The notes under the pieces were generated by a model. It worked only from the letters and a program-made list of their open reading frames with translations. It made no database searches and was not told where the DNA came from. A DNA stretch of 64,000 nucleotides from an uncultured Omnitrophica bacterium (GTDB taxonomy: Bacteria > Omnitrophota > Gorgyraeia > JACQQV01): the NCBI GenBank assembly GCA_947085655.1, contig CAMTXH010000007.1:46085-110084 (forward strand). The letters are read 5' to 3'. Both the position numbers and the translations under genes were made by a program. Below are positions 6,619 to 64,000 of this stretch, one piece after another. Every line of letters starts with the position of its first letter. Positions within the stretch are counted from its first letter, which is position 1.

Positions 6619-6624
6619 ACAGGC

Positions 6625-15007: not shown

Positions 15008-15039
15008 TTCAGCTTATACTATACCATAAGCGACCGACA

Positions 15040-15915: not shown

Positions 15916-15967
15916 ATTTTGATATTAGGATATGATAGAATAGATACTACCGAAGAAAGGAGACTTC

Positions 15968-17691: not shown

Positions 17692-17704
17692 GAATGAAAA
17701 AAAC

Positions 17705-17740
17705 TTTGACAAAGCTACATTTTTATGGTAACTTATATTA
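17705..17740 (+). promoter_or_regulatory. Putative sigma70 promoter for the HD-GYP-like gene
   Basis: TTGACA, a 17-nt spacer, then TAACTT or TATATT in an AT-rich intergenic region. RBS AAGGAG lies 7 nt before the ATG at 17757. Coordinates approximate. Confidence 0.35.
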
Positions 17741-17756
17741 ATATAAGGAGTTATAA

Positions 17757-31855: not shown

Positions 31856-32191
31856 TTGTTCGTGGCGGTGGTGATTTTGACGGTGATGGGAACTGAGAGT
31901 TTCGCAGGAGAAAAGTTTGTTTATGAAAAGCGGAACCGTGATCCCTTTCAATCCCTCGTCACAGAAGACGGGAAACTTCTTTTTGGGTCCGGTATCCTTT
32001 CGCTTGAAGATGTATACCTCGAAGGGATTGTATGGGATCCTAACGGGGAATCCGTCGCGATGATCAACGGGATGATTTTAAGGCAGGGGGATCGCATCGG
32101 CGATCTGCAGATTTTAAAGATCGAAAGCGACCGCGTGGTTCTTGAAGCGGATGGAGAAGAGCGGTCACTCCTTTTGCAGGAGGAATTTTAG
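31856..32191 (+). CDS. pilP: PilP (lipoprotein-like)
   Basis: I chose the TTG or GTG start just after the pilO stop. It gives a signal peptide 'FVAVVILTVMGTESFA' followed by 'KRNRDPFQSLV' (the PilP RDPF motif). The track ORF starts at 31808 and overlaps pilO. Confidence 0.55.
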   Translation: MFVAVVILTVMGTESFAGEKFVYEKRNRDPFQSLVTEDGKLLFGSGILSLEDVYLEGIVWDPNGESVAMINGMILRQGDRIGDLQILKIESDRVVLEADGEERSLLLQEEF

Positions 32192-32207
32192 TTTGAAAGG
32201 AGGCACC

Positions 32208-33788
32208 ATGGTCCTCTGGGAACGGAAAGGATGGGGGAGAGGATTTATTTTGTGCTGGCTGATTCTAGGAGTTTTCTCTTTTCCGGTCATCGGGCAAGAA
32301 GAGATGGAAGAAAAACCCGAGACGGTGGCACCGGCTCCGGTTCAGGAGGAAAAGCCCGCTATTGTTGAAACCAGCCCCGGAAACATCACCATGGATTTCA
32401 AGGACGCAGACATCAACAATGTTCTCAGGATTCTCTCCTATAAAAGCGGTGTCAATATCGTGACCGGACAGGATGTCCAGGGGTTGGTGACCATCCGGCT
32501 GACCGATGTCCCTTGGGAGAAGGCACTGGATGTGATCCTGAGGACTTACGGCTTTGCCTACGAACGGGAGGGGAACATCATCCGGGTCACGACAGTGGAG
32601 AATCTTGAGAAGGAAGAACTGTCGACAGAGGTCTTTGTGCTGAATTATGCGAAGGCCTCCGAAGTGATTGAATCGGTTCGGGACATTTTGAGCGAACGGG
32701 GAAGGGTCCGTCACGACGAAAGGACGAACGTACTGATTGTGACCGACATCCCGACCAATATCTACAAAATCGGCCAGGTCATTCAGCGGCTCGACAAACG
32801 GACCCCCCAGGTTTTGATTGACGCCAAGGTCGTGGAGACGACGCTGGATAACGACGAAAAACTCGGAATTGACTGGAGTATTCAGGTGGCGGCAAGAGGG
32901 GCGGCCAGGCCGCACACGTTCCCGTTCCCGCAGGACACCATTGGCCGCACCTTTGGCCCTCAGGGTCAGACCCAGGCGCAGACATCCGTGACGACGACCC
33001 AGGGAGGTTCACAGACAGCCACGCAAACGGACTTTCCGACCCGCTTCGGCTTCCCCTTTATCCAGCCGGAGGCCTTCACCTTTGGCACGCTAGGGTTTGA
33101 CCAGTTTTCCACTATCCTTGAAGTTTTGAAGTCGCGGCGGGATACCAAGGTTCTTTCGAATCCGAGAATCACGACGCTCAATAACCAAACCGCGTCGATT
33201 TTGGTGGGGGAGGTCCTTGCGATTCCGATTTTTGAGCGGAATGAGAACACGGGCAGTATCGAAATCACCGGTTATGACGAGAAAGACCTTGGGATTAAAC
33301 TTTCCGTCACTCCCCATGTGAATAACGAGGGGATGATCCTGGTGGAAATGAAGCCCGAAATCACCTCTCTTTTAGGTTTTGATGAATTAACGCCAGAAGT
33401 AAAGGCTCCCCGTTTTGCAAGCCGGGAGGCAGAGACCCAGGTGCTTGTCAAAGACGGCGATACCATCGCCATCGGGGGGCTTGTTTCTGAAAATGAAGTT
33501 GATTCTGTGCGTAAGGTCCCACTTTTTGGAGATATTCCGGGTCTCGGCTACTTCTTCAGTCAGAAGACCAGGACCAAAGATAAAACCGATCTCCTTTTCT
33601 TTGTGACGGTCCATATCGTATCCGACGAAGACTTTGACGCAGCCAAACAGACGGCCAAGCACCTGCAGGAGTCTAGCATTGCGGAACTCCGCAAAGCGCC
33701 TGTTGGGGTCCCTGTTTCGCTCGAAAGAGAAGGTCGGATTCAGGAAGGGTACCTCGGGAAAGAGAAGTCTCACTCTTCCGAGCCGTAA
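32208..33788 (+). CDS. pilQ: Type IV pilus secretin PilQ
   Basis: RBS GAAAGGAGG. Signal peptide, AMIN/N0-like N-terminal domains, and the secretin C-terminal domain ('VLSNPRITTLNNQTASILVGEV ... GDTIAIGGL ... KVPLFGDIPGLGYFF'). Confidence 0.85.
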   Translation: MVLWERKGWGRGFILCWLILGVFSFPVIGQEEMEEKPETVAPAPVQEEKPAIVETSPGNITMDFKDADINNVLRILSYKSGVNIVTGQDVQGLVTIRLTDVPWEKALDVILRTYGFAYEREGNIIRVTTVENLEKEELSTEVFVLNYAKASEVIESVRDILSERGRVRHDERTNVLIVTDIPTNIYKIGQVIQRLDKRTPQVLIDAKVVETTLDNDEKLGIDWSIQVAARGAARPHTFPFPQDTIGRTFGPQGQTQAQTSVTTTQGGSQTATQTDFPTRFGFPFIQPEAFTFGTLGFDQFSTILEVLKSRRDTKVLSNPRITTLNNQTASILVGEVLAIPIFERNENTGSIEITGYDEKDLGIKLSVTPHVNNEGMILVEMKPEITSLLGFDELTPEVKAPRFASREAETQVLVKDGDTIAIGGLVSENEVDSVRKVPLFGDIPGLGYFFSQKTRTKDKTDLLFFVTVHIVSDEDFDAAKQTAKHLQESSIAELRKAPVGVPVSLEREGRIQEGYLGKEKSHSSEP

Positions 33789-42491: not shown

Positions 42492-42880
42492 GACCGATTA
42501 CAATCCGTTCTGACCAAAAAGCGCTCCTGATCGCGAAGGCAAGTCTCTCCAAGAAAGCGCACGAAGTGGTGATCTTGGACATGAAGGATGCATCCAATTT
42601 CACCGATTTTTTTGTCATCGCAAGCGGCACGTCCCAACGCCAGGTTCAGACGATTGCAGAGTGCATTGAGGAGACCCTCTCCAAGAAGGGACTTTCCCTC
42701 TGGCACCAAGAGGGTTATCGGGAGGGAATGTGGGTGGTTTTGGATTACGGCGATGTCATGGTTCATGTCTTTCAACAGGAAAAACGGGATTTCTACCGGC
42801 TCGAACGCCTCTGGGGAGAGGCTCCTCGGCAGTATGTGACGGATGAGGCAAAGCGCTCACCACTTTCCAGACGCGGGTAA
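42440..42880 (+). CDS. rsfS: Ribosomal silencing factor RsfS (Iojap family)
   Basis: 'ALLIAKASLSKKAHEVVILDMKD ... FFVIASGTSQRQVQTIAE ... WVVLDYGDVMVHVFQQEKRDFYRLERLW'. The start is uncertain. The only in-frame start is the TTG at 42440, inside the zinc-ribbon ORF. No canonical start lies downstream of that ORF's stop. Confidence 0.7.
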   Translation: MSGLRNRALSNSDESEVRPITIRSDQKALLIAKASLSKKAHEVVILDMKDASNFTDFFVIASGTSQRQVQTIAECIEETLSKKGLSLWHQEGYREGMWVVLDYGDVMVHVFQQEKRDFYRLERLWGEAPRQYVTDEAKRSPLSRRG

Positions 42881-44570
42881 CGACCCTTCTACGACCCCTT
42901 CCCCGAAACCGAAAGACCTGCTCCAACAGCTCCTTGAAAAGACGGTCGGTTCTCTCTTCCCGGATCATGCCCAAGACTGCAGAGTGATTCTTGAAATTCC
43001 GAAGAGCCGCAGGCACGGAGATTTGACCACCAACATCGCCATGCGCCTCGGGAGTCTCGAAAAGAAAAATCCGATGATCGTGGCGCGGTCGATCCTCAGC
43101 TCACTCGAATCACTCCTCAGCGAACGTAAACTCAAGTCCCCCTTCAAAAAGAGCGAAATCCTTCCACCCGGTTTCATCAATTTCCATCTCAAAGAGGAGC
43201 ATCACCGGAATATCCTCTCGGAGATTTCCGATTCGGATCGGTACGGCGCATCCCAACTCGGGAAGGGGATGCCGCTTCAGATTGAATTTGTGAGTGCCAA
43301 TCCGACTGGGCCGCTCAGCGTGGCCCACGGGCGCCAGGCGGCGGTGGGGGATAGCTTGGCACGGATTCTGGAGTATGCCGGATACCAGGTGACGCGCGAA
43401 TACTATGTAAATGACATGGGGAACCAGATCCGGCTTTTGGGGACGTCTTTGTCTGCGCGGTACAGAGAGTTATTCGGAGAGAAAACCGAGATCCCGGAAG
43501 GGGGATACCAGGGGAGGTATCTTATTTCCCTCGCTGAGGCAATACGGGCAGAACACGGGGAACGATTCCGAACCGAGACGGAGGAGAGCCGCTCCCTTTT
43601 TGAGCGGGTTGCAACCGAGAAAATTCTCGGAGTCATCCGGGAGAACCTTGCCCGTTTCCAGGTCTTTTTTGACCATTTCACGCATGAATCCGAGTTGCAT
43701 GCCAAAGGGGAAGTTCAAAAGACTCTTGAGTTCCTTCGGAAAAGCGGTGACCTTTACGAGTCGGAGGGAGCCACCTGGTTCCGGTCCACCCGGCTGGGAG
43801 ACGACAAGGACCGTGTCGTCATCAAGTCGGACGGAAGTTTTACGTATCTTGCTCCGGACATCGCCTACCACCAAAAGAAATTCAGCCTGGGATTCAAACG
43901 GCTCATCGATATTTGGGGTCCGGATCATCACGGCTATATCGGCCGGTTGAAGGCGGCCGTTCAGGCCCTGGGCCATCCGAAGGAATCCCTGGATGTTTTA
44001 ATCATCCAGCTGGCGACCCTTTACCGGGAGGGAAAGCCGGTTGCGATGTCGACCCGGATGGGGGAGTTTATCACCCTTCAGGAGGTGATGGACGAAGTAG
44101 GGGTGGAGGCGGCCCGGTTTTTCTTTGTGATGAAAAAACGTTCCGCCCATCTTGATTTTGATTTGAGTCTTGCAAAAAGCCAGTCGCTTGAAAACCCGGT
44201 TTATACGATTCAATACGTTCATGCCCGGGTGGCCAATATCCTTAAGTTTGCGGAAGGGAAGATCAACCTCGCCCGGCGGACTGAGGCGGATGTGGCCCTT
44301 TTGAAGGAGCCGGAAGAATTGGAGATTTTGAAGCAACTGGGAGAATTTCCCGAAACCCTTCTTTCCTGTGCCAAGACCCTTGAACCGGTCTATCTGGTTT
44401 TGTATCTCCAGAAATTGGCAGGGGCATTCCACCGATTCTACCAGAAACACCGCGTCATCACGGACGATGTCCCGTTAAGTCTTGCCCGAGTTCAATTGGC
44501 CCTATGCGTCCAAAAAGTGATTCGTCGGGGACTGTCGCTATTGGGGATTACGGCACCCGACAAGATGTAA
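42843..44570 (+). CDS. argS: Arginine-tRNA ligase ArgS
   Basis: Class I aaRS. N-terminal Arg_tRNA_synt_N ('LLQQLLEKTV ... RHGDLTTNIAM'), HIGH-like 'ANPTGPLSVAHGR', and a DALR anticodon-binding C-terminus. The start may lie a few codons downstream of 42843. Confidence 0.9.
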   Translation: MRQSAHHFPDAGNDPSTTPSPKPKDLLQQLLEKTVGSLFPDHAQDCRVILEIPKSRRHGDLTTNIAMRLGSLEKKNPMIVARSILSSLESLLSERKLKSPFKKSEILPPGFINFHLKEEHHRNILSEISDSDRYGASQLGKGMPLQIEFVSANPTGPLSVAHGRQAAVGDSLARILEYAGYQVTREYYVNDMGNQIRLLGTSLSARYRELFGEKTEIPEGGYQGRYLISLAEAIRAEHGERFRTETEESRSLFERVATEKILGVIRENLARFQVFFDHFTHESELHAKGEVQKTLEFLRKSGDLYESEGATWFRSTRLGDDKDRVVIKSDGSFTYLAPDIAYHQKKFSLGFKRLIDIWGPDHHGYIGRLKAAVQALGHPKESLDVLIIQLATLYREGKPVAMSTRMGEFITLQEVMDEVGVEAARFFFVMKKRSAHLDFDLSLAKSQSLENPVYTIQYVHARVANILKFAEGKINLARRTEADVALLKEPEELEILKQLGEFPETLLSCAKTLEPVYLVLYLQKLAGAFHRFYQKHRVITDDVPLSLARVQLALCVQKVIRRGLSLLGITAPDKM

Positions 44571-46480
44571 AGATTCCCTTTGACGTTGTCTCCCTTTATC
44601 CGGGGGAGGTCTATTCGCGGGACGCTTTCTTGAGGCGTCTTACGCGTCTCGGCTACCTCCGGTGTGAGCGGGTTACGGAACTGGGGGACTTTGCGGTCCG
44701 CGGGGAGACGGTGGAGATTTATCCTGTTTCTTTTGAGGACCCGATTCAAATCCTCTTTGACGGGGATCGAATTGAATCGATCCGGAGCTTCCGCCTCTTG
44801 GACCATGAGATCCAGGAGCCCCACCCCTTTTTCATCCTCCTTCCTTTTCATAAAGAGCTTCCGAAGCCCCCCAAGCCCTTCCCGGCCGAGGCGTACCAGG
44901 CCGTCCCGCTGCAGGGTGCCGTGGACCTTGAAGAGGGGGATTATGCGGTCCATGTCGAGTACGGCATCGGCCGTTACAAGGGGCTTGAGAAACTGAAGAC
45001 CGATTCGGGACTCCGGGATCATCTGGTTCTGGAGTATGCGGAGGAGGACAAATTGTATGTCCCGTGCGAGCACCTCCATCTCATCCAGCGGTATGTCGGG
45101 CTCGGCGGCCGTGCCCCAAAACTCCACCGGCTCGGTTCCAAAGTCTGGAAAAAGACAAAAGAGATCTCCCAAAGGAACATCTACCGATATGCGGTTGAAC
45201 TTTTGGAAGTCCAGGCGAAGCGATCGAGCCGGAAGGGACATCCCTTTTCAAAGGACACGGACTGGCAGAAGGAGTTTGAAGAGGCCTTTCAATATGAGGA
45301 GACGCCGGATCAAGTCCGTTCCGCTGAAGAAGTGAAGGCGGATATGGAACGACCGAAGCCGATGGACCGGCTTTTGTGCGGAGATGTGGGATACGGTAAG
45401 ACGGAGGTGGCGCTTCGGGCAGCCTTTAAGGCGGTGATGGATGATAAACAGGTAGCGATGCTTGTCCCGACGACCATCCTGGCGGAGCAACATTTCAGGA
45501 CGTTCCTGGAGCGGGTATCGAAATATCCGGTGCAGGTGGAAATGCTTTCCCGGTTCCGCTCCAAAAGCGAGATTGGGGAGGCGTTGAAAGGGATCCGGGA
45601 GGGAGGGGTGGATATCGTAATCGGGACCCACATGCTTTTCTCGGATAAAATCCGATTTAAGGATTTGGGACTGGTCATCATCGACGAGGAGCAGCGGTTC
45701 GGTGTCCGGCATAAAGAGCGCTTGAAGCGCCTCCGGTATGAGGTGGATGTTCTGACGCTGACCGCCACGCCGATCCCGAGGACGCTCTATCTTTCCCTGA
45801 TGGGCGCCAGGGAGATGTCGATCATCAACACCCCGCCGGAGTCAAGGCGGCCGATTGAAACAGAGGTGACCGAGTTTGACGACGGTCTGATCCGGAAGGC
45901 GGCCCTTCTGGAACTCGAGCGAGGCGGCCAACTCTTTTTTGTGACGGACCGGATCAAGGGAATCGAGAAGATCCGAGATCACCTTTCGAAACTGATCCCC
46001 GAGGCGAGGATGGCGATCTGTCACGGCCAGATGCCGGAGCGGCACCTGGAGGAAGTGATGCATCAATTCATCACCCAGAAGATCGATTTTTTGATTTCAA
46101 CCAATATCATTGAATCCGGAATCGACATCCCGACCGCCAACACCCTCTTTGTCAACCACGCCCACCGGTTCGGACTGTCGGACCTCTACCAGCTCCGCGG
46201 CCGAATCGGGCGGTTTAAGGAAAAGGCATTTGCCTATTTTTTTGTTCCGAGAGGGTATCTCCCGACGGAAGAGGGGAAGAGGCGCCTTTCGGCCATCCAA
46301 AGGTTCGGCGCCCTCGGTTCCGGATTTAAAATCGCCATGCGCGACCTGGAGATTCGGGGAGCCGGGAACATCCTTGGGGTGGAGCAGCACGGCACCATCC
46401 AGGCAATCGGTTTTGATTTGTATTTGAGATTGCTTCGCGAGACGATTGCGCGGTTGGAACGGATGGAGTTTGAGGAATGA
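44504..46480 (+). CDS. mfd: Transcription-repair coupling factor Mfd, minimal form (D1b remnant/D3 + RID + translocase; no D1a/D2, no D7)
   Basis: CarD/TRCF RNAP-interacting domain ('GDYAVHVEYGIGRYKGL ... EYAEEDKLYVPCEHLHLIQRY'). SF2 translocase motifs ('LLCGDVGYGKTEVALRAA', 'DEEQRFG', 'QLRGRIGR', TRG-motif region). Only about 80 aa precede the RID. They match the end of domain 1b ('FAVRGETVEIYPVSFEDPIQILFDGDRIESIRSF'). The ORF is hemmed in by argS (stop 44570) and the SurA-like gene (start 46477), so the short ends are not an ORF-calling artefact. Confidence 0.8.
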   Translation: MRPKSDSSGTVAIGDYGTRQDVKIPFDVVSLYPGEVYSRDAFLRRLTRLGYLRCERVTELGDFAVRGETVEIYPVSFEDPIQILFDGDRIESIRSFRLLDHEIQEPHPFFILLPFHKELPKPPKPFPAEAYQAVPLQGAVDLEEGDYAVHVEYGIGRYKGLEKLKTDSGLRDHLVLEYAEEDKLYVPCEHLHLIQRYVGLGGRAPKLHRLGSKVWKKTKEISQRNIYRYAVELLEVQAKRSSRKGHPFSKDTDWQKEFEEAFQYEETPDQVRSAEEVKADMERPKPMDRLLCGDVGYGKTEVALRAAFKAVMDDKQVAMLVPTTILAEQHFRTFLERVSKYPVQVEMLSRFRSKSEIGEALKGIREGGVDIVIGTHMLFSDKIRFKDLGLVIIDEEQRFGVRHKERLKRLRYEVDVLTLTATPIPRTLYLSLMGAREMSIINTPPESRRPIETEVTEFDDGLIRKAALLELERGGQLFFVTDRIKGIEKIRDHLSKLIPEARMAICHGQMPERHLEEVMHQFITQKIDFLISTNIIESGIDIPTANTLFVNHAHRFGLSDLYQLRGRIGRFKEKAFAYFFVPRGYLPTEEGKRRLSAIQRFGALGSGFKIAMRDLEIRGAGNILGVEQHGTIQAIGFDLYLRLLRETIARLERMEFEE

Positions 46481-47397
46481 TTCGGAAAACCGGCCTGGTT
46501 TTGGCAGCACTTCTTTTTTGGGAGGGAGCGGCTTTCTCCCAGGAACCGGTTGCAAGGATCGTTGCGGTGGTGAATGACGAGGTCATCACCGAGCAGGAGC
46601 TTCAGGATGCGGTTCTGGAGGCGACCGGAAAAAAGGCAGAGGAGCCGTCTGTGCGGGAGTCGGCCCTCGACCGTTTGATCGAGCACAAACTGATTCTCCA
46701 GAAGGCGGCGGGACTCGGCATCTCCGTCACCCCCGAAGAGGTCCGGAAGGAAATCCAAAAGGTGAGGGAGAGTTTTCCCTCTGAGGAGGCGTTTCAACAG
46801 GCACTCGAAGATGCCCGCCTTACTTATGAAGCGTTTGAAAAGCGGTACGGAGAGCAACTTCTCATCCGGAAGATGGTCGGCCGTGAGGTCCAATCAAAGA
46901 TCCGTGTCTCGCCGGGTGAGATTGAGACGTTTTACCAAGAAAACCTGACTTTCTTTCAAGGACCGAAACTCTGGCGGATTGCCCATATCCTTATCCGAAG
47001 AGAAAAACCGGGTGAAGCGGATCCGGAAGCCAAGGCCCGTGCCGAGGAAATTTACAAGCGTCTTGAGGCGGGGGAGCCGTTTTCGGAACTTGCCAGGCAG
47101 TATTCGGAGGGGCCCCGAAAAGAAGAGGGGGGGGACCTTGGATACATTGAACCGGACAAACTGATGCCGGAGATTACAGAGGTCCTCCGGGATCTTCCGA
47201 TTGGAAGCGCTTCAAAAATGGTTGAAAGCCCGATTGGATACAACTTTTTCCAAATTCTGGAGCGGAAGCAAAACTACTCGATCCCGTTTAAGGAAGTCAA
47301 AAAAGAAATCGAGGCACGGCTCTACGAGGAAAAAACAAGAGCCGGTTATGCCGAGTGGGTTTCAAAACTGAAACAAAATGCCTATATCAAGAAATAA
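46477..47397 (+). CDS. SurA/PrsA-like periplasmic chaperone with parvulin (PpiC) PPIase domain
   Basis: Signal peptide 'MIRKTGLVLAALLFWEGAAFS'. SurA_N-like region ('VNDEVITEQELQ ... LIEHKLILQKA') followed by a parvulin domain ('IAHILIRREKPGEADPEAKARAEEIYKRLEAGEPFSELARQYSEGPRKEEGGDLGYIEP'). Confidence 0.75.
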   Translation: MIRKTGLVLAALLFWEGAAFSQEPVARIVAVVNDEVITEQELQDAVLEATGKKAEEPSVRESALDRLIEHKLILQKAAGLGISVTPEEVRKEIQKVRESFPSEEAFQQALEDARLTYEAFEKRYGEQLLIRKMVGREVQSKIRVSPGEIETFYQENLTFFQGPKLWRIAHILIRREKPGEADPEAKARAEEIYKRLEAGEPFSELARQYSEGPRKEEGGDLGYIEPDKLMPEITEVLRDLPIGSASKMVESPIGYNFFQILERKQNYSIPFKEVKKEIEARLYEEKTRAGYAEWVSKLKQNAYIKK

Positions 47398-48370
47398 CCC
47401 CACCGCCTACCTGACACTCGGGGATCCGGCCGGAATCGGTCCGGAGGTGGTTTTAAAGGCGCTGCAAAGTCCGCATCTTGGGTCCCTCCGGACCGTTGTC
47501 ATCGGCTCCGGGAATGTTTTAAGCCGGGTCGAGCGCCTCACCCGGTTTTCCATCCCCAAAAAGGCCCTTTTTGTCGACTTAAAGAATGTTCCGGAAAAGG
47601 GGTTCCGTTATGGAAAAGTTTCCGCTATCTATGGGATGGCGGCCTTTGAATTTATTAAGGAAGGGGTTCAGCGGGTGGGGAGGGATCCTTTCGGGTTTTT
47701 GGTCACTGCGCCGATTCATAAAGAGGCCCTTCAAAAAGCAGGACTCCCATGGCCCGGCCATACGGAGATGCTTCAGGATTTAACCGGTGCCAAAAGAATC
47801 AACATGATGTTTGTTGGGAAGCGGCTCCGGATTTCGCTGGTGACCTGGCACGTGTCGATCCGCTCTCTTCCGAATGCGCTGACCTCCTCGGGTGTTTGGG
47901 ATGCCCTCTTCTTGATGGAACAGGCCCTTCGCCGTTATTTTTCAATTCCGCGTCCGATGATAGGGCTTTGTGCTTTGAATCCGCATGCGGGGGAAGGGGG
48001 AATTTTCGGGGATGAAGAGAGGCGAATCCTCAAACCCGCTCTTCAACGTGCAAGACGGAAGGGGATCCGGGTGGAAGGACCCCTTCCATCGGATGATCTG
48101 TTCTACAGGGCGTATCACGGCCGGTATGACGGGGTGGTGGCCCTTTATCATGATCAGGGACTCATCCCCTTTAAAATGATTGAGCGGGAAGTCGGCGTGA
48201 ATGTTTCGCTCGGACTTCCGTTTGTCCGGACCTCTCCGGATCACGGAACCGCCTTTGATATTGCGGGAAAAGACCGGGCCGACCCCCGTTCCATGATCGA
48301 AGCGATCCGATTGGGAAGAGCGATGACGATGGCCGATTCTGGAAAACGACATGGACCTTGGAACTCTTAA
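47378..48370 (+). CDS. pdxA: 4-hydroxythreonine-4-phosphate dehydrogenase PdxA
   Basis: 'LTLGDPAGIGPEVVLKAL ... APIHKEAL ... GHTEML', a PdxA-family signature. Confidence 0.85.
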   Translation: MPISRNNPTAYLTLGDPAGIGPEVVLKALQSPHLGSLRTVVIGSGNVLSRVERLTRFSIPKKALFVDLKNVPEKGFRYGKVSAIYGMAAFEFIKEGVQRVGRDPFGFLVTAPIHKEALQKAGLPWPGHTEMLQDLTGAKRINMMFVGKRLRISLVTWHVSIRSLPNALTSSGVWDALFLMEQALRRYFSIPRPMIGLCALNPHAGEGGIFGDEERRILKPALQRARRKGIRVEGPLPSDDLFYRAYHGRYDGVVALYHDQGLIPFKMIEREVGVNVSLGLPFVRTSPDHGTAFDIAGKDRADPRSMIEAIRLGRAMTMADSGKRHGPWNS

Positions 48371-49190
48371 AGCACTTTTCCGGAAATATGATTTCCGGCC
48401 CAAGAAACGCTTGGGCCAAAATTTTTTGGTCTCCCGGTCAGTCGCCGAAAGAATATTGCAATGTTTCGGAGAAACGGAAGAGCCGGTTGTCGAAATCGGC
48501 GGCGGGTTTGGTGCGCTCACCGGACTTCTGGCAGAATCTTCTCCGTCTGTCTATGTCCTTGAACCGGACCCGGTTCTTTACGGGTATCTTTCGGAAAAGT
48601 TTCAAGGGAGGGAGGGCGTTTGGATCGAAAAGAAGGATATTCTTAAAACCTCCTTTAAAGAATATGCCGCTCCGAAGGCCCGCGTGATCGGCAATCTCCC
48701 GTACGCGATTACGAGCCCCATCCTGATCCATCTGGTCAACGAGCGGCGGTTTCTCGAAGAAGCGGTCGTGACGGTTCAGGAAGAAGTGGCGGAACGGCTG
48801 AAGGCGAAACCCAGAACCAAGGCCTACAGCCCCCTCAGTTGTCTTTTACAGTGTTTTGCCGAGATAACAGCCCTTTTCAAGATCCCGCCGGGCGCTTTTT
48901 ACCCCCGGTCGAAAGTCGATTCCCGTGTGGTCCGGATCCGTTTTCTCATCCGGCCGGCCGTCGCCCCCAGGGACCTTGATTTTATGTTCCAGGTCATCCG
49001 GGCCGGTTTTGGGAAGCGGCGTAAGCTCTTGGCCAATGCCCTCCAGGATTTAGGCCTTCCCAAGGAAAAGATCGTGGCCGGTCTGGAAGAGGCCGGTTTT
49101 TCTAAGGGGGTGCGAGCAGAGGAGTTAGAGCTTTCCGCTTTTGCCCGGCTCTCGGATCAATTTCAGACATTGACAAGGGGGAAAAAGTAG
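48351..49190 (+). CDS. rsmA: 16S rRNA (adenine1518/1519-N6)-dimethyltransferase RsmA/KsgA
   Basis: 'KRLGQNFLV', 'VVEIGGGFGALT', 'IGNLPYAITSPIL'. Confidence 0.9.
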   Translation: MDLGTLKALFRKYDFRPKKRLGQNFLVSRSVAERILQCFGETEEPVVEIGGGFGALTGLLAESSPSVYVLEPDPVLYGYLSEKFQGREGVWIEKKDILKTSFKEYAAPKARVIGNLPYAITSPILIHLVNERRFLEEAVVTVQEEVAERLKAKPRTKAYSPLSCLLQCFAEITALFKIPPGAFYPRSKVDSRVVRIRFLIRPAVAPRDLDFMFQVIRAGFGKRRKLLANALQDLGLPKEKIVAGLEEAGFSKGVRAEELELSAFARLSDQFQTLTRGKK

Positions 49191-55098: not shown

Positions 55099-56370
55099 AT
55101 GATCTGGCTGAAGGATTTATGGGACACTTTTAAACATCTCAAGGTACCGGATGTTCTGGACATCTCGGTGATGGCCTGCCTTGTCTACTTTATCCTTCTT
55201 TGGTTCAAGCGGACAAAGGCGGCCTTTGTGGCCCGGGGAATTTTCATCTTTGCAATGGTGTATGTCATTGCCCAGCAGGCCGGGATGTATCTCACCACAT
55301 GGCTTTTTCAGGGATTCTTCGCCATTTTCGTGATTGCCCTTGTGATCATTTTTCAGGAGGAGATCCGGAGTTTTTTTGAACGGATTGCGGTCTGGAGTCT
55401 CGGCAGACGCTCCTCCCATCCTCTGCAGCCGGAGGAAGTGGAGATTCTTGTTCGGACTTCCGGGCATTTTGCCAGGGAGCGGATCGGGGCGTTGATTGTG
55501 CTCAAGGGACTCGACCCCCTTGAGCGACATATCGAGGGGGGAGAAAGTCTCGACGGCAAGGTTTCAGAACCGCTCCTCGAAAGTCTCTTTGATCCGCATT
55601 CCATCGGTCATGACGGGGCGGTCGTGATTGAAAATGACCGGGTGGTCCAGTTTGGCGTCCACCTTCCTCTTTCAAAGGAATTCAGCAAACTCGGCAACGT
55701 CGGGACAAGACACGCCGCCGCGCTCGGCCTTTCCGAACGGACCGATGCCCTCTGCATTGTCGTTTCGGAAGAACGGGGAACCATTTCTCTGGCGCGGAAC
55801 GGCAGCATGAGCATTGTGGATAATCTCGAATTCTTGGAAGAACGGGTCGCCTCTTTCTTCCGGGAGATGGCGCCGAAACAGGTAAAACACCGCTGGTGGC
55901 AGGATGCCTGGAGGCGAAATCCGAACGAAAAAGCGATTGCTTTGGTCATCTCTGTGGCGCTTTGGCTCGTCTTTGTCCAAGGCTTCAACCCTTCCAGTAA
56001 TGTGTTCAAGGTGCCGGTTGAGGCGCGCTCAGTGGATGACCGGTTCAGGGTGATGGCGGTCCGTCCCCAGAAAGTGACTGTGACGGTCCATGGACTGAAA
56101 CGGGATTTGAAGCTGCTGAACCCCTGGAACCTGAAGGTCTCTATGGTTGCCGATCAGGCGGAGGAGGGGACGCATCAGATTATGATTACCGAAGAAAGTC
56201 TCTCCCTGCCCGGAACGGTAGCGCTGATCGGGGTCGATCCCCCGTTCGTGGAACTGGAACTCTCGAAGTCAAAGGGTAAACCATTCCTCCACCTTTTCGG
56301 AACCCCTCCTGAGGAAAAGCCGACCCCGGCACCTGTCGAGGAAGAGGGGCATGTCCAAACTACCCCCTAA
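55099..56370 (+). CDS. cdaA: Diadenylate cyclase CdaA fused to a CdaR (YbbR-repeat) regulator, with non-canonical RHR to RHA motif
   Basis: Three N-terminal TM helices plus DAC domain ('DGAVVIENDRVVQFGVHLPLS ... GTRHAAALGLSERTDALCIVVSEERGTISLA'). Then an extra TM ('AIALVISVALWLVFVQGF') and about 150 aa of beta-rich YbbR-like repeats. A 'TGTTATAAT' extended -10 ends about 7 nt before the ATG, so the mRNA may be leaderless. Confidence 0.75.
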   Translation: MIWLKDLWDTFKHLKVPDVLDISVMACLVYFILLWFKRTKAAFVARGIFIFAMVYVIAQQAGMYLTTWLFQGFFAIFVIALVIIFQEEIRSFFERIAVWSLGRRSSHPLQPEEVEILVRTSGHFARERIGALIVLKGLDPLERHIEGGESLDGKVSEPLLESLFDPHSIGHDGAVVIENDRVVQFGVHLPLSKEFSKLGNVGTRHAAALGLSERTDALCIVVSEERGTISLARNGSMSIVDNLEFLEERVASFFREMAPKQVKHRWWQDAWRRNPNEKAIALVISVALWLVFVQGFNPSSNVFKVPVEARSVDDRFRVMAVRPQKVTVTVHGLKRDLKLLNPWNLKVSMVADQAEEGTHQIMITEESLSLPGTVALIGVDPPFVELELSKSKGKPFLHLFGTPPEEKPTPAPVEEEGHVQTTP

Positions 56371-57388
56371 TCCCATTCTTTCCTTTTTTTCCCAAAAGCC
56401 GGCTGATTTGACAAAGCTCCTCATCTTTACGCATGACCATCCCGATCCTGATGCCATTGCCAGTGCCTGGTCGCTGGCCTATCTTGCCGAGCAGATCGCC
56501 GGAATCCGTTCACGCATCGTGTATCGGGGGGTCATCGGAAGGATGGAAAACCAGATGATGATTCGGACCCTCCGGATTCCGGTCCAGCTCATCCGCACAA
56601 ACGATTACGCTTATTCCTCTCATATGGCGACGGTTGATACCCAGCCGCCTTTTCAAAACAATTCTTTCCCGAGCCGCCGCCGTGCCCTGATGGTGATTGA
56701 CCATCACCTTCGCCATGCAAAAACCAAGGGAGAGTTCGTTCACATTGATGCGTCCGTCGGAGCGACCACCACCCTCCTCGCTGAGGCGCTTCTTGAGGCG
56801 GGGGTGAATGTCCCGACCCGGCTTGCCACCGCAATCGTCTATGGCATTACATCCGAAACCCAGAACCTATGGCGGGAGGCGACGCCGAGGGACATCGCCG
56901 TCTATCGGATATTATTCCCAAAGGCGAGCATCAACACCCTTTCCAAAATTCAAAATCCCTCCCGCCCCAGCTCCTTTTTTGCCATTCTCGGAAAGACGAT
57001 CCACCACGCATTCGTCGTCGGCCGTGTGATCGGCGTTCATCTGGGACCGGTCCCGAGCCAAGATGTGGTGGCCCATATGGCCGATTTTCTCCTGACGCAT
57101 GAAAAGATGAAATGGTCCATCGTAACCGGTCGTTTCGGAGGCCGGCTGTATGTCTCCCTCCGGACGAATCACCGGCGCGCCCAGGCAGGGAAACTTCTCT
57201 GGCGTCTTCTCGGTTCCGGGACCTCGGCCGGGGGGCATGCGATGATTGCGGGCGGTTCCATGACCATCGAGAAGAAAGAGGAGGAAACCGCCTGGGACAA
57301 AGCGGAGCAGGAGATCCTCACGAACTTCCTCGGCAGTCAGGGATATAAAGAGCCGCTTGTATTTCAGTATCCTTATCGGGGTTCGTAG
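56351..57388 (+). CDS. DHH-DHHA1 phosphoesterase (NrnA/Pde2/DhhP-like)
   Basis: 'HDHPDPDAIASAW' (DHH motif I-II), 'VIDHHLRH' (motif III), and DHHA1 'GGH' ('GSGTSAGGHAMIAGGS'). Overlaps the cdaA-cdaR 3' end by 20 nt. Confidence 0.75.
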   Translation: MSKLPPNPILSFFSQKPADLTKLLIFTHDHPDPDAIASAWSLAYLAEQIAGIRSRIVYRGVIGRMENQMMIRTLRIPVQLIRTNDYAYSSHMATVDTQPPFQNNSFPSRRRALMVIDHHLRHAKTKGEFVHIDASVGATTTLLAEALLEAGVNVPTRLATAIVYGITSETQNLWREATPRDIAVYRILFPKASINTLSKIQNPSRPSSFFAILGKTIHHAFVVGRVIGVHLGPVPSQDVVAHMADFLLTHEKMKWSIVTGRFGGRLYVSLRTNHRRAQAGKLLWRLLGSGTSAGGHAMIAGGSMTIEKKEEETAWDKAEQEILTNFLGSQGYKEPLVFQYPYRGS

Positions 57389-60732: not shown

Positions 60733-61737
60733 GTGGCGCAGGATCAGGGTCCGTCGAAAGACCGGAGGGTATTGGATGAAGCAATCGCAAAAGAGAGCGA
60801 ATTCATCCCCCGGCTTGTGTCCGAAATCGAAAAGGTCATTGTCGGACAGAAATATCTGATTGAAAGACTATTGATCGGCCTCCTTGCCAACGGTCATATT
60901 CTGATCGAAGGAGTTCCGGGGCTTGCAAAGACCGCCTCGGTCCGGACCCTTTCACAGGCAATTGATACCAAATTTCAAAGAATCCAGTTTACTCCGGACC
61001 TTCTTCCCGCCGACCTGATCGGAACGTTAATTTACAATCCCAAGGACGGAAATTTTACCACCAAAAAGGGACCCCTCTTCGCCAACATTATCCTGGCGGA
61101 TGAAATCAACCGCGCCCCTGCCAAGGTGCAAAGCGCTCTCCTGGAGGCGATGCAGGAACATCAGGTGACGATTGGGGAAAATACCTTTCCGTTGGATGAC
61201 CCCTTTTTGGTGTTGGCGACGCAGAATCCGATTGAACAGGAAGGAACCTATCCCCTCCCGGAGGCCCAGGTGGACCGCTTCATGCTGAAGTTGAAGATCA
61301 CCTATCCCACCTCCAAAGAGGAAAGGGTCATCATGGACCGGATGACGAGTTCCAAGCCGATCATCGTCAACAAGGTCATTTCCCCCCAGGAAATCATCCG
61401 GGCCCGGGGGGTGGTACGCGACATCTATATGGACGACCGGATTAAAGACTACATCGTGAATCTTGTCGCCGCAAGCCGTGAACCGGAACAGTACCATCTC
61501 GACATTAAGGGATACATCCTCTACGGGGCCTCCCCCCGCGCGACCATCAATCTCACCATCGCTTCCAAAGCACACGCCTTTTTAAAACGACGGGCCTATG
61601 TCACGCCGGAGGATGTCAAGGCGATCGGCATGGATGTCCTCCGTCACCGGATTCTCATTACGTATGAGGCGGAGGCGGAGGATATCACTTCCGAGCGGAT
61701 TGTTGAAAAACTCTTCGAGGGGGTTCCCGTTCCATGA
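60733..61737 (+). CDS. MoxR-family AAA+ ATPase
   Basis: GTG start. 'LLIGLLANGHILIEGVPGLAKT' Walker A, 'ILADEINRAPAKVQSALLEAM' Walker B/sensor. MoxR signature throughout. Confidence 0.85.
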   Translation: MAQDQGPSKDRRVLDEAIAKESEFIPRLVSEIEKVIVGQKYLIERLLIGLLANGHILIEGVPGLAKTASVRTLSQAIDTKFQRIQFTPDLLPADLIGTLIYNPKDGNFTTKKGPLFANIILADEINRAPAKVQSALLEAMQEHQVTIGENTFPLDDPFLVLATQNPIEQEGTYPLPEAQVDRFMLKLKITYPTSKEERVIMDRMTSSKPIIVNKVISPQEIIRARGVVRDIYMDDRIKDYIVNLVAASREPEQYHLDIKGYILYGASPRATINLTIASKAHAFLKRRAYVTPEDVKAIGMDVLRHRILITYEAEAEDITSERIVEKLFEGVPVP

Positions 61738-62624
61738 TTCCGAAGGAATTTTTCCGCCGGATTCGTCAGCTCGATATCACCACCAAACGGCTGGTCACCG
61801 ACCTTTTTGCAGGAGAATATGAGAGTGTGTTTAAAGGGAGGGGCATCGAATTTGCCGAGGTCCGGGAATATCAGATCGGAGATGATATCCGGACCATCGA
61901 CTGGAATGTCACCGCCCGGATGGGCCGCGCCTACACCAAGCGTTTTGTGGAAGAGAGGGAACTGACAGTCATGTTTTTGGTGGATATCAGCGCCTCCGGT
62001 TTCTTCGGAAGCGGCGAAAAAACAAAGCGGGAGTTTGCGGCGGAGCTCTCCGCGGTGCTGGCTTATTCGGCTTTTTCCAATCAGGATAAAATAGGACTCC
62101 TGCTTTTTACGGACCGGGTCGAGAAATTCCTCGCCCCCAAAAAGGGAAGGATGCATTTATTGGAGGTTCTGCGTGACCTCCTTTATTTCAAGCCGAAGGG
62201 AAAAGGGACCCGGTTGAAAGTGGCACTTGATTTTTTAAACCGGGTCATTCCGAGACGGTGTGTCGTTTTTATCGTTTCGGATTTTTTGACGGAGGATTAC
62301 TGGCAACTGCTCCGGATCACCCATAAGCGTCATGATACGATCTGCGTGGTGATTCAGGACGAACGGGAAAAGGAACTTCCACCGGTTGGACTTGTAGTCT
62401 TTGAGGATGCGGAGACGGGAGAAGTGGCTGCCATGAACACATCTCGGGAGGTCCTCCTTCAGTTCTTCAGGAACAACTCCCAAAAAAGAACCGAAGCGCT
62501 TTTTGAGCGCTTTCGTTCAGCCGGAATGGATGCCATCCCGATCGTGGTGGGGGATCCTTATATCGAGCCGTTAATGAAATTTTTCAGGACCCGCCAGAGA
62601 AGGCAGAGTCTGCATGCGGCATGA
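61734..62624 (+). CDS. DUF58 protein (MoxR-associated, vWA-like)
   Basis: '...EFAEVREYQIGDDIRTIDWNVTAR', the conserved DUF58 core. ATGA overlap with moxR. Confidence 0.7.
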   Translation: MIPKEFFRRIRQLDITTKRLVTDLFAGEYESVFKGRGIEFAEVREYQIGDDIRTIDWNVTARMGRAYTKRFVEERELTVMFLVDISASGFFGSGEKTKREFAAELSAVLAYSAFSNQDKIGLLLFTDRVEKFLAPKKGRMHLLEVLRDLLYFKPKGKGTRLKVALDFLNRVIPRRCVVFIVSDFLTEDYWQLLRITHKRHDTICVVIQDEREKELPPVGLVVFEDAETGEVAAMNTSREVLLQFFRNNSQKRTEALFERFRSAGMDAIPIVVGDPYIEPLMKFFRTRQRRQSLHAA

Positions 62625-63583
62625 AAAGTCCCCTTGGGTGCATGGCTTTGGGGATCGGGTTTCTTCTTTTTGGAAGCGTCGCCGAAGCCAAGCCACCTGT
62701 CCAATGGTACACCCGCCTCGATAAAGATGTTGTCACTGTCGGAGACGAAATTACCTACGAAATCAGTGTGACCCATCCGAAGGGAATCATCGTCCAATTT
62801 CCGACCGAGGAAAAGGTCTTCGACCCTTTTGAGCTGAAGCGGCATCGTCCTTTTCCGAGACGGGAAGAAGGGATTCAGGTCACCGAAGGGATCCGTTATG
62901 TCTTGACAATATTCCGCGTCGGAGAATGGCAGATTCCCGCCCTGACCATCGACTATACTGACTATCGGGAAAGCGCCTTACCCGAGAGTCCCCTCAAGCA
63001 GGGTCAGGCATCCTCCGGCGTACGGAGCTCCGTATCAACCGAGCCCCTGACCGTTTTGGTCCGGAGCGTCCTCGGAGAAAGCCCCTCGCCGGGACTGGAT
63101 ATCCAGAAATTGAAACCGCCAAAAGAAGACCGCCTCCCACGAATCTTCAGGACGGCCGCCGTCGCCTTTCTCTCGGTCGGTGCGCTTTGTATCGGGCTTT
63201 ACGGTTTCATCCATTTTTTACCGAAGCAGATCCCCCGACTGCAGCGAGAGGATCCCAAGATCACATTTGGACGGGAACTCCGCATTTTGCGCCAAAAACT
63301 CGATCAGCAGAGGGTTGTGACTCCCCAAGATTACGAGAACCTTGCCAGGTCCCTCCGGAGGTTTCTTTCGGGGGAATATGATCCCCTTTCCCTCCATTGG
63401 ACCACCCATGAACTCCATGAACGGATGACGGAGTACCCCCCGACCCGCTCGATCGCCGATCGGGTCCACCAGATTTTATCGGCATCGGACCTCGTCAAAT
63501 TTGCCAGCCGTGAGATTTCCCGGGATGAACTGGAACTTTTCCTCCGGGATCTGGAAGGACTCCTTCCGGAGAAGCCAGGATGA
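62621..63583 (+). CDS. DUF4381/BatD-like membrane protein (MoxR-operon component)
   Basis: Signal peptide, an extracytoplasmic beta-rich domain, and a central TM 'AAVAFLSVGALCIGLYGFIHFL'. Position matches bat/moxR operon architecture. Confidence 0.45.
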   Translation: MKSPLGCMALGIGFLLFGSVAEAKPPVQWYTRLDKDVVTVGDEITYEISVTHPKGIIVQFPTEEKVFDPFELKRHRPFPRREEGIQVTEGIRYVLTIFRVGEWQIPALTIDYTDYRESALPESPLKQGQASSGVRSSVSTEPLTVLVRSVLGESPSPGLDIQKLKPPKEDRLPRIFRTAAVAFLSVGALCIGLYGFIHFLPKQIPRLQREDPKITFGRELRILRQKLDQQRVVTPQDYENLARSLRRFLSGEYDPLSLHWTTHELHERMTEYPPTRSIADRVHQILSASDLVKFASREISRDELELFLRDLEGLLPEKPG

Positions 63584-64000
63584 GCGAACACCCCTTCAGG
63601 ATTGCCAGTCCTCTTTTTTTGGTTCTCTTTCCGGTTTTCATCATCTTCTTTATCCTTTATGTCAAAAACAGAATCGGCAGGGAAACGACGCTTTCTTTTT
63701 CGAGTCTTGGGTTTTTCCGGGCGAAGGATGCGGTCGTTTCCATCCCCCAGAGAAATTTTTTTCTCGGAATTCGGGGAATGGCCCTCCTCCTTTTGGGGCT
63801 GGCGCTTTTGAGGCCGCAACAGGGGGAGGGGATCGAAGAGATTCGGGATAAAGGGATCGATCTTGTGATGGCACTGGATGTTTCCGGGAGCATGAAAGCA
63901 CTCGATTTTTTGCCGAAAAACCGGTTGGAGGGAGCCAAGGAGGCGGCTAAATCGTTCATTGAGCGACGAAAAGGAGACCGGATCGGACTCGTTGTATTCG
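63580..64000 (+). CDS. BatA-like von Willebrand factor A protein (5' partial, runs off the window)
   Basis: ATG overlaps the upstream stop. Two N-terminal TM helices, then 'GIDLVMALDVSGSM' (the vWA MIDAS DxSxS motif). Confidence 0.6.
   Translation, partial: MSEHPFRIASPLFLVLFPVFIIFFILYVKNRIGRETTLSFSSLGFFRAKDAVVSIPQRNFFLGIRGMALLLLGLALLRPQQGEGIEEIRDKGIDLVMALDVSGSMKALDFLPKNRLEGAKEAAKSFIERRKGDRIGLVVF

Follow-up and report, generated by a model that had tools for sequence, protein, structure and literature searches.

A compact, D2-retaining and D7-less Mfd from an Omnitrophota bacterium

Canonical and reduced forms of Mfd

Accounts of TCR usually treat the elaborate eight-domain choreography of Mfd as an integral part of the process, with its D2:D7 clamp, its D1-D3 repositioning and a UvrA site that stays occluded until loading has been completed. 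The engineered Escherichia coli variant MfdΔD7 was reportedly the subject of studies by Smith in 2007 and Manelyte in 2010. This construct comprises Mfd residues 1-997 (PMC1874598) and is derepressed, as is the ΔBHM variant (PMC1874598; PMC3025350). MfdΔD7 displaces RNAP, binds UvrA constitutively and retains TCR both in vitro and in vivo (PMC3025350). Natural reduction has been described for Buchnera aphidicola and Wigglesworthia glossinidia, where D1 and D2 of Mfd are lost, D7 is kept and the genomes lack UvrABC; these proteins are presumed to be NER-independent RNAP-displacement factors (PMC13453472). The Mfd of Thermus thermophilus (978 aa; PDB 6M6A, 13JQ), which is shorter than the E. coli protein, is naturally unrepressed and translocates without RNAP (PMC13453472).

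The window analysed here, a stretch of 64,000 nucleotides from an uncultured Omnitrophota bacterium, encodes a 658-aa protein that can be set against each of these systems. With canonical Mfd (E. coli, PDB 2EYQ; M. smegmatis, 6AC8) it has in common D2, the RNAP beta-interacting domain (RID), the relay helix, the two translocase domains TD1/TD2 with their SF2 motifs, the TRG motif and the hook, and identity across RID to D6 is 49-57%. However, approximately 490 of 1148 residues are missing, the D2:D7 clamp is lacking, a disordered linker of approximately 25 residues connects D2 straight to the RID, and the UvrA contacts are eroded. The C-terminus corresponds to E. coli residue ∼993 (the alignment runs to 986-988), four residues before that of MfdΔD7, in which D2 is also unmasked; the natural protein, however, additionally lacks D1a, D1b and D3, has a changed D2 surface and is fixed across its phylum. 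Like the endosymbiont Mfds it is naturally reduced and belongs to a small-genome lineage, but its truncation pattern is the opposite, D2 being kept and D7 lost. T. thermophilus Mfd retains all domains, including the D1, D3 and D7 that are lacking here, and its clamp is merely dynamic. RecG, finally, has a homologous SF2 motor, a TRG motif and a similar length, but carries an N-terminal wedge domain and neither RID nor D2.

Identity, boundaries and domain organization of the compact Mfd

The 658-aa protein passed the NCBIfam mfd equivalog model TIGR00580 (849.9 bits against a cutoff of 800) and scored below threshold with the E. coli-type model NF007966 (634 against 1329). A phmmer search of the PDB returned Mycobacterium tuberculosis Mfd (4e-173) and E. 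coli Mfd (3e-170), the phmmer and profile matches to Mfd in the PDB spanning 1e-170 to 1e-233, and the best Foldseek matches were likewise Mfd (TMq ∼0.7). RecG was rejected as an identity: the best RecG model gave 396.5 against a cutoff of 718, and the N-terminus consists of D2 and RID without a wedge domain. The ORF is a real, complete and true Mfd, and its identity and compact architecture, taken together, are close to certain.

Coordinates of the gene, its neighbours and the domains of its product are given in Table 1. The ORF is present where the first-pass annotation had placed it, and is as tightly bounded as was claimed there. Upstream, argS is complete, its DALR domain being covered from position 1 to 117 of 117 up to the final residue, and its 3' end overlaps the 5' end of mfd by 67 nt, an overlap that is also found in L055, the closest relative. 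Downstream, the mfd stop codon shares the sequence ATGA (46477-46480) with the overlapping ATG of the surA-like gene.

Table 1. Features of the compact mfd locus in window coordinates (aa, residues of the 658-aa protein).
Feature	Position	Strand	Evidence or remark
argS	42843..44570	+	complete; upstream boundary of mfd; Arg_tRNA_synt_N, tRNA-synt_1d, DALR_1
compact mfd ORF	44504..46480 (including stop codon)	+	658 aa, complete
N-terminal leader, aa 1-25	44504..44578	+	predicted disordered, pLDDT <50; first 67 nt within argS 3' end
D2 (UvrB-interaction / UvrA-binding domain), aa 26-114	44579..44845	+	PF17757, AF2, alignments
TTG (L43), NCBI-called start	44630..44632	+	gives 616-aa protein (P0001)
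D2-RID flexible linker, aa 115-141	44846..44926	+	pLDDT <50 at 117-139
RID (RNAP beta-interacting domain), aa 142-210	44927..45133	+	PF02559 positions 1-57 of 57, E = 1e-18
Relay helix, aa 213-241	45140..45226	+	AF2: single continuous helix; aligns to E. coli relay-helix region
TD1 (D5), aa ∼242-445	45227..45838	+	DEAD, ResIII; Walker A GDVGYGKTEV, DEEQ, TATPIPRT
TD2 (D6), aa ∼446-658	45839..46477	+	Helicase_C; motif VI QLRGRIGR, TRG motif, hook helices
surA-like, pdxA, rsmA	46477..49190	+	directly 3' of mfd; conserved boundary; Pfam

The TTG codon that NCBI takes as the start is probably not the true one, since a protein beginning there loses the first strand and helix of D2. Residues 24-42 lie 3' of the argS stop codon and include the family-invariant F26 and Y32, and the majority of homologues begin at the equivalent of residue 25. 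No canonical ATG, GTG or TTG codon occurs between 44504 and 44630. For one relative, P0005, the gene call is a 925-aa product in which mfd is fused with surA.

Such discrepancies between gene callers (616 versus 658 aa here, and the fused call of P0005) are what would be expected if a canonical mfd had been cut by a frameshift, a misassembly or an ORF-calling error. Against this artefact or pseudogene, complete argS and surA-like genes adjoin the ORF on either side, independent assemblies yield more than 250 compact homologues, synteny is conserved with no room for D7, the independent Logan assembly of run ERR4904392 is identical in sequence to the NCBI assembly, and the motor motifs are under strong purifying selection. 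The flanking genes, homologues, synteny and identical assemblies effectively refute it, and its probability is negligible. The view of the first-pass annotation that the gene is not truncated thus stands, while the frameshift that it had raised as a counter-hypothesis, one fusing the ORF with a UvrB-like ORF upstream, is made unlikely by the complete argS in that position.

The compact Mfd is built, in order, from D2, the disordered linker, RID, relay helix, TD1/TD2, TRG and hook. A Pfam scan identified UvrB_inter, RID, DEAD (together with ResIII) and Helicase_C and gave no match to PF03461 (TRCF/D7), which was found in both of two canonical Mfds (P0121 and L008) scanned likewise as controls. 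Profile alignment maps the protein to two blocks of E. coli Mfd, 129-222 and 454-988; E. coli residues 1-128 and 223-453 have no aligned counterpart in phmmer or profile alignments. Four of the eight Mfd domains, D1a, D1b, D3 and D7, are therefore missing. The absence of D1a, the end of the protein after TRG without a D7, and the retention of the RID and translocase motifs had all been read correctly in the first pass.

Within the retained part, the linker is Pro-rich in the window protein and K/R-rich in most family members, and its column entropy is the highest among the internal regions of the family alignment. The RID aligns with E. coli residues 479-545, and L164 takes the place of E. coli L499, a position held by L, I, V or M in the family. 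The relay helix matches an E. coli region that we take to be residues 548-573. Motor motifs I, II, III and VI are all intact, as is the TRG motif, and those of TD1 are invariant within the family; the TRG motif comprises R594, R618 and RDLEIRGAGNILGVEQHG, with R594 and R618 invariant in the family. AF2 places helices at 607-657 in the C-terminal part of TD2.

The presence of D2 departs from the earlier reading, according to which the protein begins at the end of domain 1b, has lost D2 together with D7 and consists of RID plus translocase only. Instead, D2 lies near the N-terminus and it is D1b itself that is missing. Residues 29-114 are covered by PF17757 (UvrB_inter; E = 1e-17) over positions 1-87 of the 91 in the profile, the same residues form a gap-free alignment with E. 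coli Mfd 131-216, which is D2 (PDB 2B2N, 4DFC), and also with UvrB domain 2, and the predicted AF2 fold is confident (pLDDT ∼83-89). A protein structurally unable to contact UvrA for want of D2 would suit the short length and the missing D7, but it is refuted by the profile match, the gapless alignment and the confident fold, and is very improbable.

The UvrA-contact surface of D2 and coupling to repair

The canonical UvrA contacts are R165, R181, D183 and F185 in E. coli Mfd and R196, R213, E215 and F217 in UvrB, a list that rests on mutagenesis in which multiple residues were changed at once. In the window protein one of the four is canonical: R66 is kept, whereas R181, D183 and F185 are replaced by Q82, L84 and D86. 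Among 188 long Mfds, a baseline made up of those most similar to the query and not a random sample, all four contacts occur in 135, none has fewer than two, and the equivalents of R165, R181, D183 and F185 are kept in 97%, 100%, 98% and 75%, respectively. In Omnitrophota compact Mfds the corresponding values are 66%, 88%, 73% and 5%. Three of the four contacts are substituted in the sub-clade of the window protein, within which D2 is strongly conserved, the altered surface 'PIQIxF(D/E)' included; this conservation could reflect a co-evolved UvrA interface instead of lost binding.

The protein carries every element needed to bind RNAP and to translocate on dsDNA, and these elements are conserved. 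By analogy with the E. coli and Thermus proteins, the RID would dock on the RNAP beta protrusion, and the SF2 motor would move on upstream duplex DNA and push stalled or backtracked RNAP forward, leading to rescue or termination. Engineered E. coli truncations suggest that, without D7 and the D1/D3 clamp, the motor would be constitutively derepressed, with a DNA-stimulated ATPase and RNAP-independent translocation as in E. coli MfdΔD7, MfdΔN or T. thermophilus Mfd. D2 would be permanently unmasked on its leash. Indeed, since the C-terminus lies near the ΔD7 cut and MfdΔD7 is derepressed yet TCR-competent, a constitutively active RNAP-displacing translocase with D2 exposed is predicted.

The least certain step is coupling to NER. 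The first-pass annotation had held that the architecture leaves the protein unable to recruit repair, but this is not implied, because TCR persists in E. coli MfdΔD7 (PMC3025350). A failure to recruit NER is nevertheless possible for another reason, namely the substitutions at three of the four UvrA contacts in the sub-clade. As only one of four contacts remains in the window protein, coupling is doubtful here, and the balance leans, though not far, towards a protein that is mainly uncoupled or weakly coupled. Taken as a whole, the explanation that we favour with moderate confidence is that the gene is the complete and single mfd orthologue of this Omnitrophota bacterium, and that it encodes a constitutively derepressed RNAP-removal motor that would be mainly NER-uncoupled or only weakly coupled.

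The more serious rival, which we consider possible but less probable, is a fully competent coupling factor resembling a natural MfdΔD7, in which the tethered D2 recruits UvrA through a co-evolved interface and the lost domains had regulatory or structural roles only. D2 is retained, folded and conserved in two independently reduced lineages, and its maintenance as a folded domain across the family speaks for a function. On its own, D2 is stable and has been crystallised with a UvrA fragment (PDB 4DFC); MfdΔD7 supplies a precedent both for TCR and for constitutive UvrA binding; and in endosymbionts the loss of UvrABC goes together with that of D2, by which logic D2 retention suggests that UvrA is still used. 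In the compact Mfds of CPR the R181 and D183 equivalents are kept in 100%, and most other compact Mfds, CPR ones especially, probably still bind UvrA. For the window protein, however, Q82, L84 and D86 stand where the 188 canonical Mfds have R in 100%, E/D in 98% and an aromatic residue in 75%. When the equivalent residues of E. coli Mfd are changed to alanine, UvrA is no longer bound, and the D2AAA triple mutant loses TCR as well (PMC3025350). Moreover, the same UvrA surface serves UvrB, so that co-evolution would need parallel changes there.

The uvr genes are unlinked to mfd in every sampled locus. No uvrA, uvrB or uvrC was found at 36.3-118.7 kb of the contig (approximately 82 kb of its 151.5 kb) or in 1.14 Mb of related loci. 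A split system, with D7 or D1/D3 supplied as separate trans-acting proteins or with a second, full-length Mfd in the genome, has nothing positive in its favour; neither PF03461 nor a second Mfd was found in the Pfam-annotated parts of the same contig interval (window ∼11.5-34.6 kb being partly scanned), and no long Omnitrophota Mfd appeared in seven GTDB loci or within the top 120 hits of the database search. We regard this arrangement as improbable.

Distribution and significance of the compact architecture

The first-pass annotation had proposed a survey of Mfd lengths in the phylum and suggested a lineage-specific reduced Mfd. The survey bears this out, with 130 Omnitrophota sequences of 597-670 aa that share one architecture and fall in one clade, although sequence counts are not counts of independent evolutionary events. 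Complete ORFs in GTDB and metagenome loci encode 628-670 aa, and complete Mfds sampled from other phyla have 987-1332 aa. In 9 of 11 Omnitrophota loci the next gene after compact mfd is the surA-like one, starting 6-150 nt past the end of the mfd match, with pdxA and rsmA next in eight of the nine; the contig of L055 ends within surA. On these sequences, the compact architecture is the standard form of Mfd in Omnitrophota.

The same architecture is found in 122 Mfds (645-733 aa) of the CPR Candidatus Staskawiczbacteria. The NCBI label of these orthologues is only 'helicase-related protein'. A neighbour-joining tree was computed from a saturated alignment; its CPR branch is long, and its outgroup, the one RecG-like sequence sampled (L049), has a very long branch too. 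In this tree 96 of 100 bootstraps recover the Omnitrophota compact sequences as a monophyletic clade nested within the long Mfds, and the CPR compact clade is separate from it. A bolder and rather unlikely proposal is that a minimal coupling factor, D2-tether-RID-motor, arose convergently in these two ultra-small radiations, the clamp being discarded in both and the exposed aromatic residue at the F185 equivalent giving way in both to a non-aromatic one. One reading within it is that lowered D2 affinity would substitute for masking in both lineages and so avoid sequestration of UvrA; alternatively, D2 may have been rewired to a different partner in the window's sub-clade.

For annotation, the NCBI call for this gene, which cuts D2, and the under-labelling of the CPR orthologues both call for correction. 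In the compact Mfd, the engineered ΔD7 and ΔN mutants have a counterpart from nature, one that also extends the recent conclusion (JBC 2026) that not all Mfds are autoinhibited. The protein offers a scaffold of ∼630 aa for structural and single-molecule work, and would allow a test of whether an unmasked D2 alone is sufficient for coupling. Overall, a protein of D2, RID and motor that is found throughout a phylum, and separately in a CPR class, marks what evolution treats as the irreducible core of Mfd.

Integrity and domain map of the mfd ORF

Consistent with the first-pass annotation, the mfd ORF at the centre of this analysis is tightly bounded by argS and a surA-like gene (see table). The end of argS is intact, with its DALR anticodon-binding domain covering Pfam profile positions 1–117 of 117 and reaching the last residue, and the gene overlaps mfd by 67 nt; on the other side, the surA-like ATG overlaps the mfd TGA (ATGA at 46477–46480). 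Moreover, run ERR4904392, assembled independently by Logan, encodes a protein identical to the window Mfd. The window itself was assigned to contig CAYJWX010000002.1 (151,532 bp) of NCBI assembly GCA_964374045.1. Because argS is complete, the surA-like gene overlaps the stop codon and the Logan assembly is identical, truncation through assembly or ORF calling is excluded. The annotation had named an upstream frameshift, concealing a UvrB-like N-terminal ORF to be fused with mfd, as one finding that could overturn its reading; such a fusion is ruled out by the complete argS gene that occupies the mfd start.

Coordinates of the mfd gene, its neighbours, the domains of its product and other clusters of the window
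Feature	Position	Strand	Details
argS	42843–44570	+	complete; upstream neighbour of mfd
mfd ORF	44504–46480	+	encodes 658 aa
D2 of mfd	44579–44845		
surA-like, pdxA, rsmA (ksgA)	46477–49190		directly downstream of mfd; loci L001–L004, L006, L055, L057, L058, L061
UvrB_inter (PF17757)	residues 29–114		Pfam, E = 1e-17
CarD_TRCF_RID	residues 142–198		Pfam
DEAD	residues 286–427		Pfam
Helicase_C	residues 468–571		Pfam
Glycosyltransferase / SAM methyltransferase cluster	216–18665		continues ~10 kb upstream on contig (L053)
T2SSE/MshEN ATPases, secretin	21985–25400 and 32142–33788		
CdaA-type cyclase, DHH/DHHA1 protein	55099–57388		
MoxR-to-BatD row	60733–64000		continues downstream (L054)

The NCBI model of the gene (P0001) is 616 aa long and starts from an internal TTG at 44630 (L43). 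Residues 24–42 are encoded 3' of the argS stop codon and include the family-invariant F26 and Y32, and the argS/mfd overlap is arranged identically in L055, the locus of the closest relative. Because of this conservation and the shared overlap, the ATG at 44504 appears the better start; between it and the TTG at 44630 there is no further canonical start codon. The NCBI gene model cuts the first strand and helix off D2.

The window protein scores 849.9 bits against TIGR00580, the Mfd equivalog model (curated cutoff 800), and far below the cutoffs of the RecG models; its Pfam domains, these RecG scores and the tree together rule out a RecG identity. The top PDB matches are Mfd of Mycobacterium tuberculosis, Mycobacterium smegmatis and E. 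coli (E-values 1e-170 to 1e-173). An AlphaFold2 model built from a 93-sequence alignment (pLDDT 79, pTM 0.72) likewise placed Mfd structures first in Foldseek (E = 1e-59, TMq about 0.7).

No Pfam match to the TRCF domain (PF03461, corresponding to D7) was found in the window protein, the C-terminus of which lies at about E. coli residue 993. D7, if present, would have been detected, because PF03461 was seen in two long, canonical Mfds scanned identically as controls (P0121, 1136 aa; L008, 1169 aa). E. coli Mfd residues 131–216, which form D2 (PDB counterparts 2B2N, crystallised alone, and 4DFC, with UvrA), align without a gap to window residues 32–117, and UvrB domain 2 was matched too, while E. 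coli 474–986 is the counterpart of window residues 139–651. The family profile matched E. coli 129–222 and 454–988 in the PDB and no other block. Only residues 1–25 and 117–139 are left unassigned, and both are predicted by AlphaFold2 to be disordered. A hidden divergent D7, D1b or D3 is ruled out by the two-block map, the disordered leftovers and the controls in which D7 was detected.

The architecture is therefore a leader, D2, a tether of ~25 aa, RID, relay helix, TD1, and TD2 with TRG and hook; D1a, D1b, D3 and D7 are missing and D2 is retained. The first-pass annotation had described RID plus translocase only, with D2 and D7 lost jointly. Domain-wise comparison with E. coli Mfd upholds the absence of D1a and D7, but D2 is present, as judged from the PF17757 match and the gapless alignment. 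RID, motifs I–VI, the TRG arginines (R594, R618) and L164 (equivalent to E. coli L499) are all conserved. Equivalog score, RID, motor and D2 all place the protein in the Mfd family; it departs from that family in D1, D3 and D7 and, along with its sub-clade, in the UvrA-contact residues.

Distribution, synteny and phylogeny

The best 120 database matches all share this compact architecture, and the named organisms among them are Candidatus Omnitrophota. Their lengths are 597–666 aa, except for one 925-aa call, the JGI metagenome protein P0005, in which mfd and surA form a single fusion ORF; either loss of the stop codon or a sequencing error in an ATGA-type junction is the probable cause. Mapping of orthologue lengths, as proposed in the first-pass annotation, sets the Omnitrophota apart: six complete mfd ORFs in GTDB species genomes encode 629–670 aa (a seventh, L046, ends at a contig edge) and further metagenome loci carry compact mfd genes of 628–658 aa, whereas every complete mfd ORF sampled from Chloroflexota, Firmicutes, Planctomycetota, Gammaproteobacteria and Dormiibacterota encodes 1113–1264 aa. 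At 9 of 11 Omnitrophota loci a surA-like gene begins 6–150 nt 3' of where the compact mfd match ends; pdxA and rsmA come next at eight of these nine, and at the ninth, L055, the contig stops within surA. The surA–pdxA–rsmA trio is a classic operon in E. coli.

A compact form is also found in the CPR. The Mfd of Candidatus Staskawiczbacteria is 656 aa long and comprises UvrB_inter, RID, DEAD and Helicase_C with no TRCF, and its best 120 relatives span 645–733 aa. The CPR compact set (loci L034, L035 and L068–L071; proteins P0274–P0393) includes many members for which the NCBI label is just 'helicase-related protein' or 'DEAD/DEAH box helicase', and surA synteny is absent at the CPR compact mfd loci. 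In a neighbour-joining tree of the RID–D6 region (103 sequences, 513 columns, 100 bootstraps), 96/100 replicates recover the compact Mfds of Omnitrophota as one clade, which lies within the long Mfds, near Planctomycetota-type and NPL-UPA2-type proteins, and the CPR compact clade is separate in 100/100. A shared origin of the two compact sets was considered and is not supported, the loci having no common synteny. Because joint monophyly was recovered in 0/100 bootstraps and the CPR loci are without surA synteny, independent domain loss appears the better reading, provisional given the neighbour-joining method and the long CPR branch.

When representatives of 50%-identity clusters were searched exhaustively, the nearest were mainly long Mfds (987–1332 aa, 47–57% identity); the only short proteins among the representatives, P0126 and P0129, both group with the Omnitrophota, and no further compact lineage was seen. 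No description of a compact or naturally short Mfd, or of nucleotide-excision repair genes, in Omnitrophota or CPR was found in the literature, and the Seymour 2023 supplements hold no uvr or mfd entries. The only naturally short precedent found is that of endosymbiont Mfds (PMC13453472).

Across the window, 60 of the 62 long non-overlapping ORFs read in the + direction. Cumulative GC skew climbs almost monotonically, with slight dips only near 16–18, 26–30 and 56–58 kb; the whole 64 kb is in one replichore, with extreme gene co-orientation. The very large glycosyltransferase / SAM methyltransferase cluster resembles a locus for surface polysaccharide or of LPS type; it also contains a heptosyltransferase-like gene and genes for a Wzy-like polymerase and a MurJ-like flippase. 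A secretin of 548 aa and two tandem secretion ATPases of the T2SSE/MshEN kind (571 and 566 aa) make up a cluster like that of a type IV pilus or T2SS. A CdaA-type diadenylate cyclase (CdaA_N plus DAC), followed directly by a DHH/DHHA1 protein, may be a c-di-AMP synthesis/degradation pair, and the row of MoxR AAA ATPase, DUF58, VWA, VWA, TPR and BatD genes is a Bat (aerotolerance)-like operon.

The UvrA-contact surface of D2

The D2 fold is maintained across the family, with GDF, G67, P74, F77 and P80 invariant or nearly so. Four contact positions were scored, namely E. coli R165, R181, D183 and F185 (UvrB R196, R213, E215 and F217), with sequences rather than evolutionary events being counted and the long Mfds forming a non-random sample. 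On that basis, the respective equivalents are canonical in 97%, 100%, 98% and 75% of 188 long Mfds, of which 135 have all four and none has fewer than two. The figures are 66%, 88%, 73% and 5% for 130 Omnitrophota compact Mfds (four, three, two, one and no residues kept in 4, 58, 45, 21 and 2 sequences) and 87%, 100%, 100% and 2% for 122 CPR compact Mfds. Because the F185 equivalent is canonical in only 5% and 2%, the exposed aromatic has been lost in both compact lineages. The rest of the surface is kept in the CPR proteins, and the Omnitrophota surface is relaxed.

Of the four residues, the window protein has R66 alone in canonical form, as do the relatives closest to it (P0001–P0008); the other positions are Q82, L84 and D86, and these sit in a locally conserved strand, 'PIQIxF(D/E)'. 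We lean, with modest confidence, towards canonical UvrA binding being weakened or lost in this sub-clade, the mutational evidence for the contact residues coming from multi-residue substitutions only; the alternative is that the altered surface is a co-evolved UvrA interface. Even though it has lost the canonical contact residues, the window D2 shares 44% identity with domain 2 of Geobacillus UvrB over 77 aa, which exceeds the 33–39% that it shares with its counterparts in more distant compact Mfds of Omnitrophota.

No uvrA, uvrB, uvrC, second mfd or stand-alone D7 was found within contig positions 36.3–118.7 kb, which comprise the window with a 10-kb extension on the upstream side and one of about 8.6 kb on the downstream side. 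In the window and 50 genome loci, neither signature regular expressions for uvr genes nor tblastn queries made from D2 and UvrB domain 2 gave a match outside mfd, and the expressions gave none in any phylum across 79 loci (1.14 Mb). This screen is uninformative because uvr genes are not linked to mfd in any sampled locus. Coupling of the window Mfd to excision repair, which the first-pass annotation thought perhaps lost, is unproven.

A motor without its clamp

E. coli Mfd without D7 shows higher ATPase activity and RNAP-independent translocation (PMC1874598), and truncation at either terminus derepresses the motor (PMC3025350). MfdΔD7 binds UvrA constitutively and still catalyses strand-specific repair, while deletion of the UvrB-homology module, or R165A/R181A/F185A, abolishes UvrA binding and transcription-coupled repair but not RNAP displacement (PMC3025350). 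In the cryo-EM pathway a 25-aa linker tethers the D1–D3 module to RID, and the UvrA site on D2 stays covered until loading has finished, a proposed guard against premature UvrA recruitment (PMC7864632). Thermus thermophilus Mfd is naturally unrepressed, the Buchnera and Wigglesworthia Mfds are without D1 and D2 in genomes without UvrABC, and the N-terminus is regarded as less conserved than D7 and the hook (PMC13453472).

The window Mfd stops four residues before the end of the engineered ΔD7 protein (E. coli Mfd 1–997, PMC1874598), and the compact tether is as long as the canonical D3–RID linker. The compact form of Omnitrophota and CPR is the opposite of the endosymbiont Mfds, having lost D7 and kept D2. 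By analogy with the E. coli truncations, the compact Mfd should act like MfdΔD7 or ΔN, as a derepressed RNAP remover; it would be a constitutively active, RNAP-displacing translocase on which D2, with no D7 clamp, would be permanently exposed. The tether (query residues 115–134 in the family alignment) is Lys/Arg-rich in most Omnitrophota compact Mfds (~ ..PKKIKKK..), and in these it may contact DNA; that of the window Mfd is Pro-rich instead (KELPKPPKPFP).

Overall, the compact Mfd is no new system and is best filed as a phylum-wide architectural variant of Mfd. As a minimal TRCF provided by nature, it allows direct tests of what the clamp and D2 each do.
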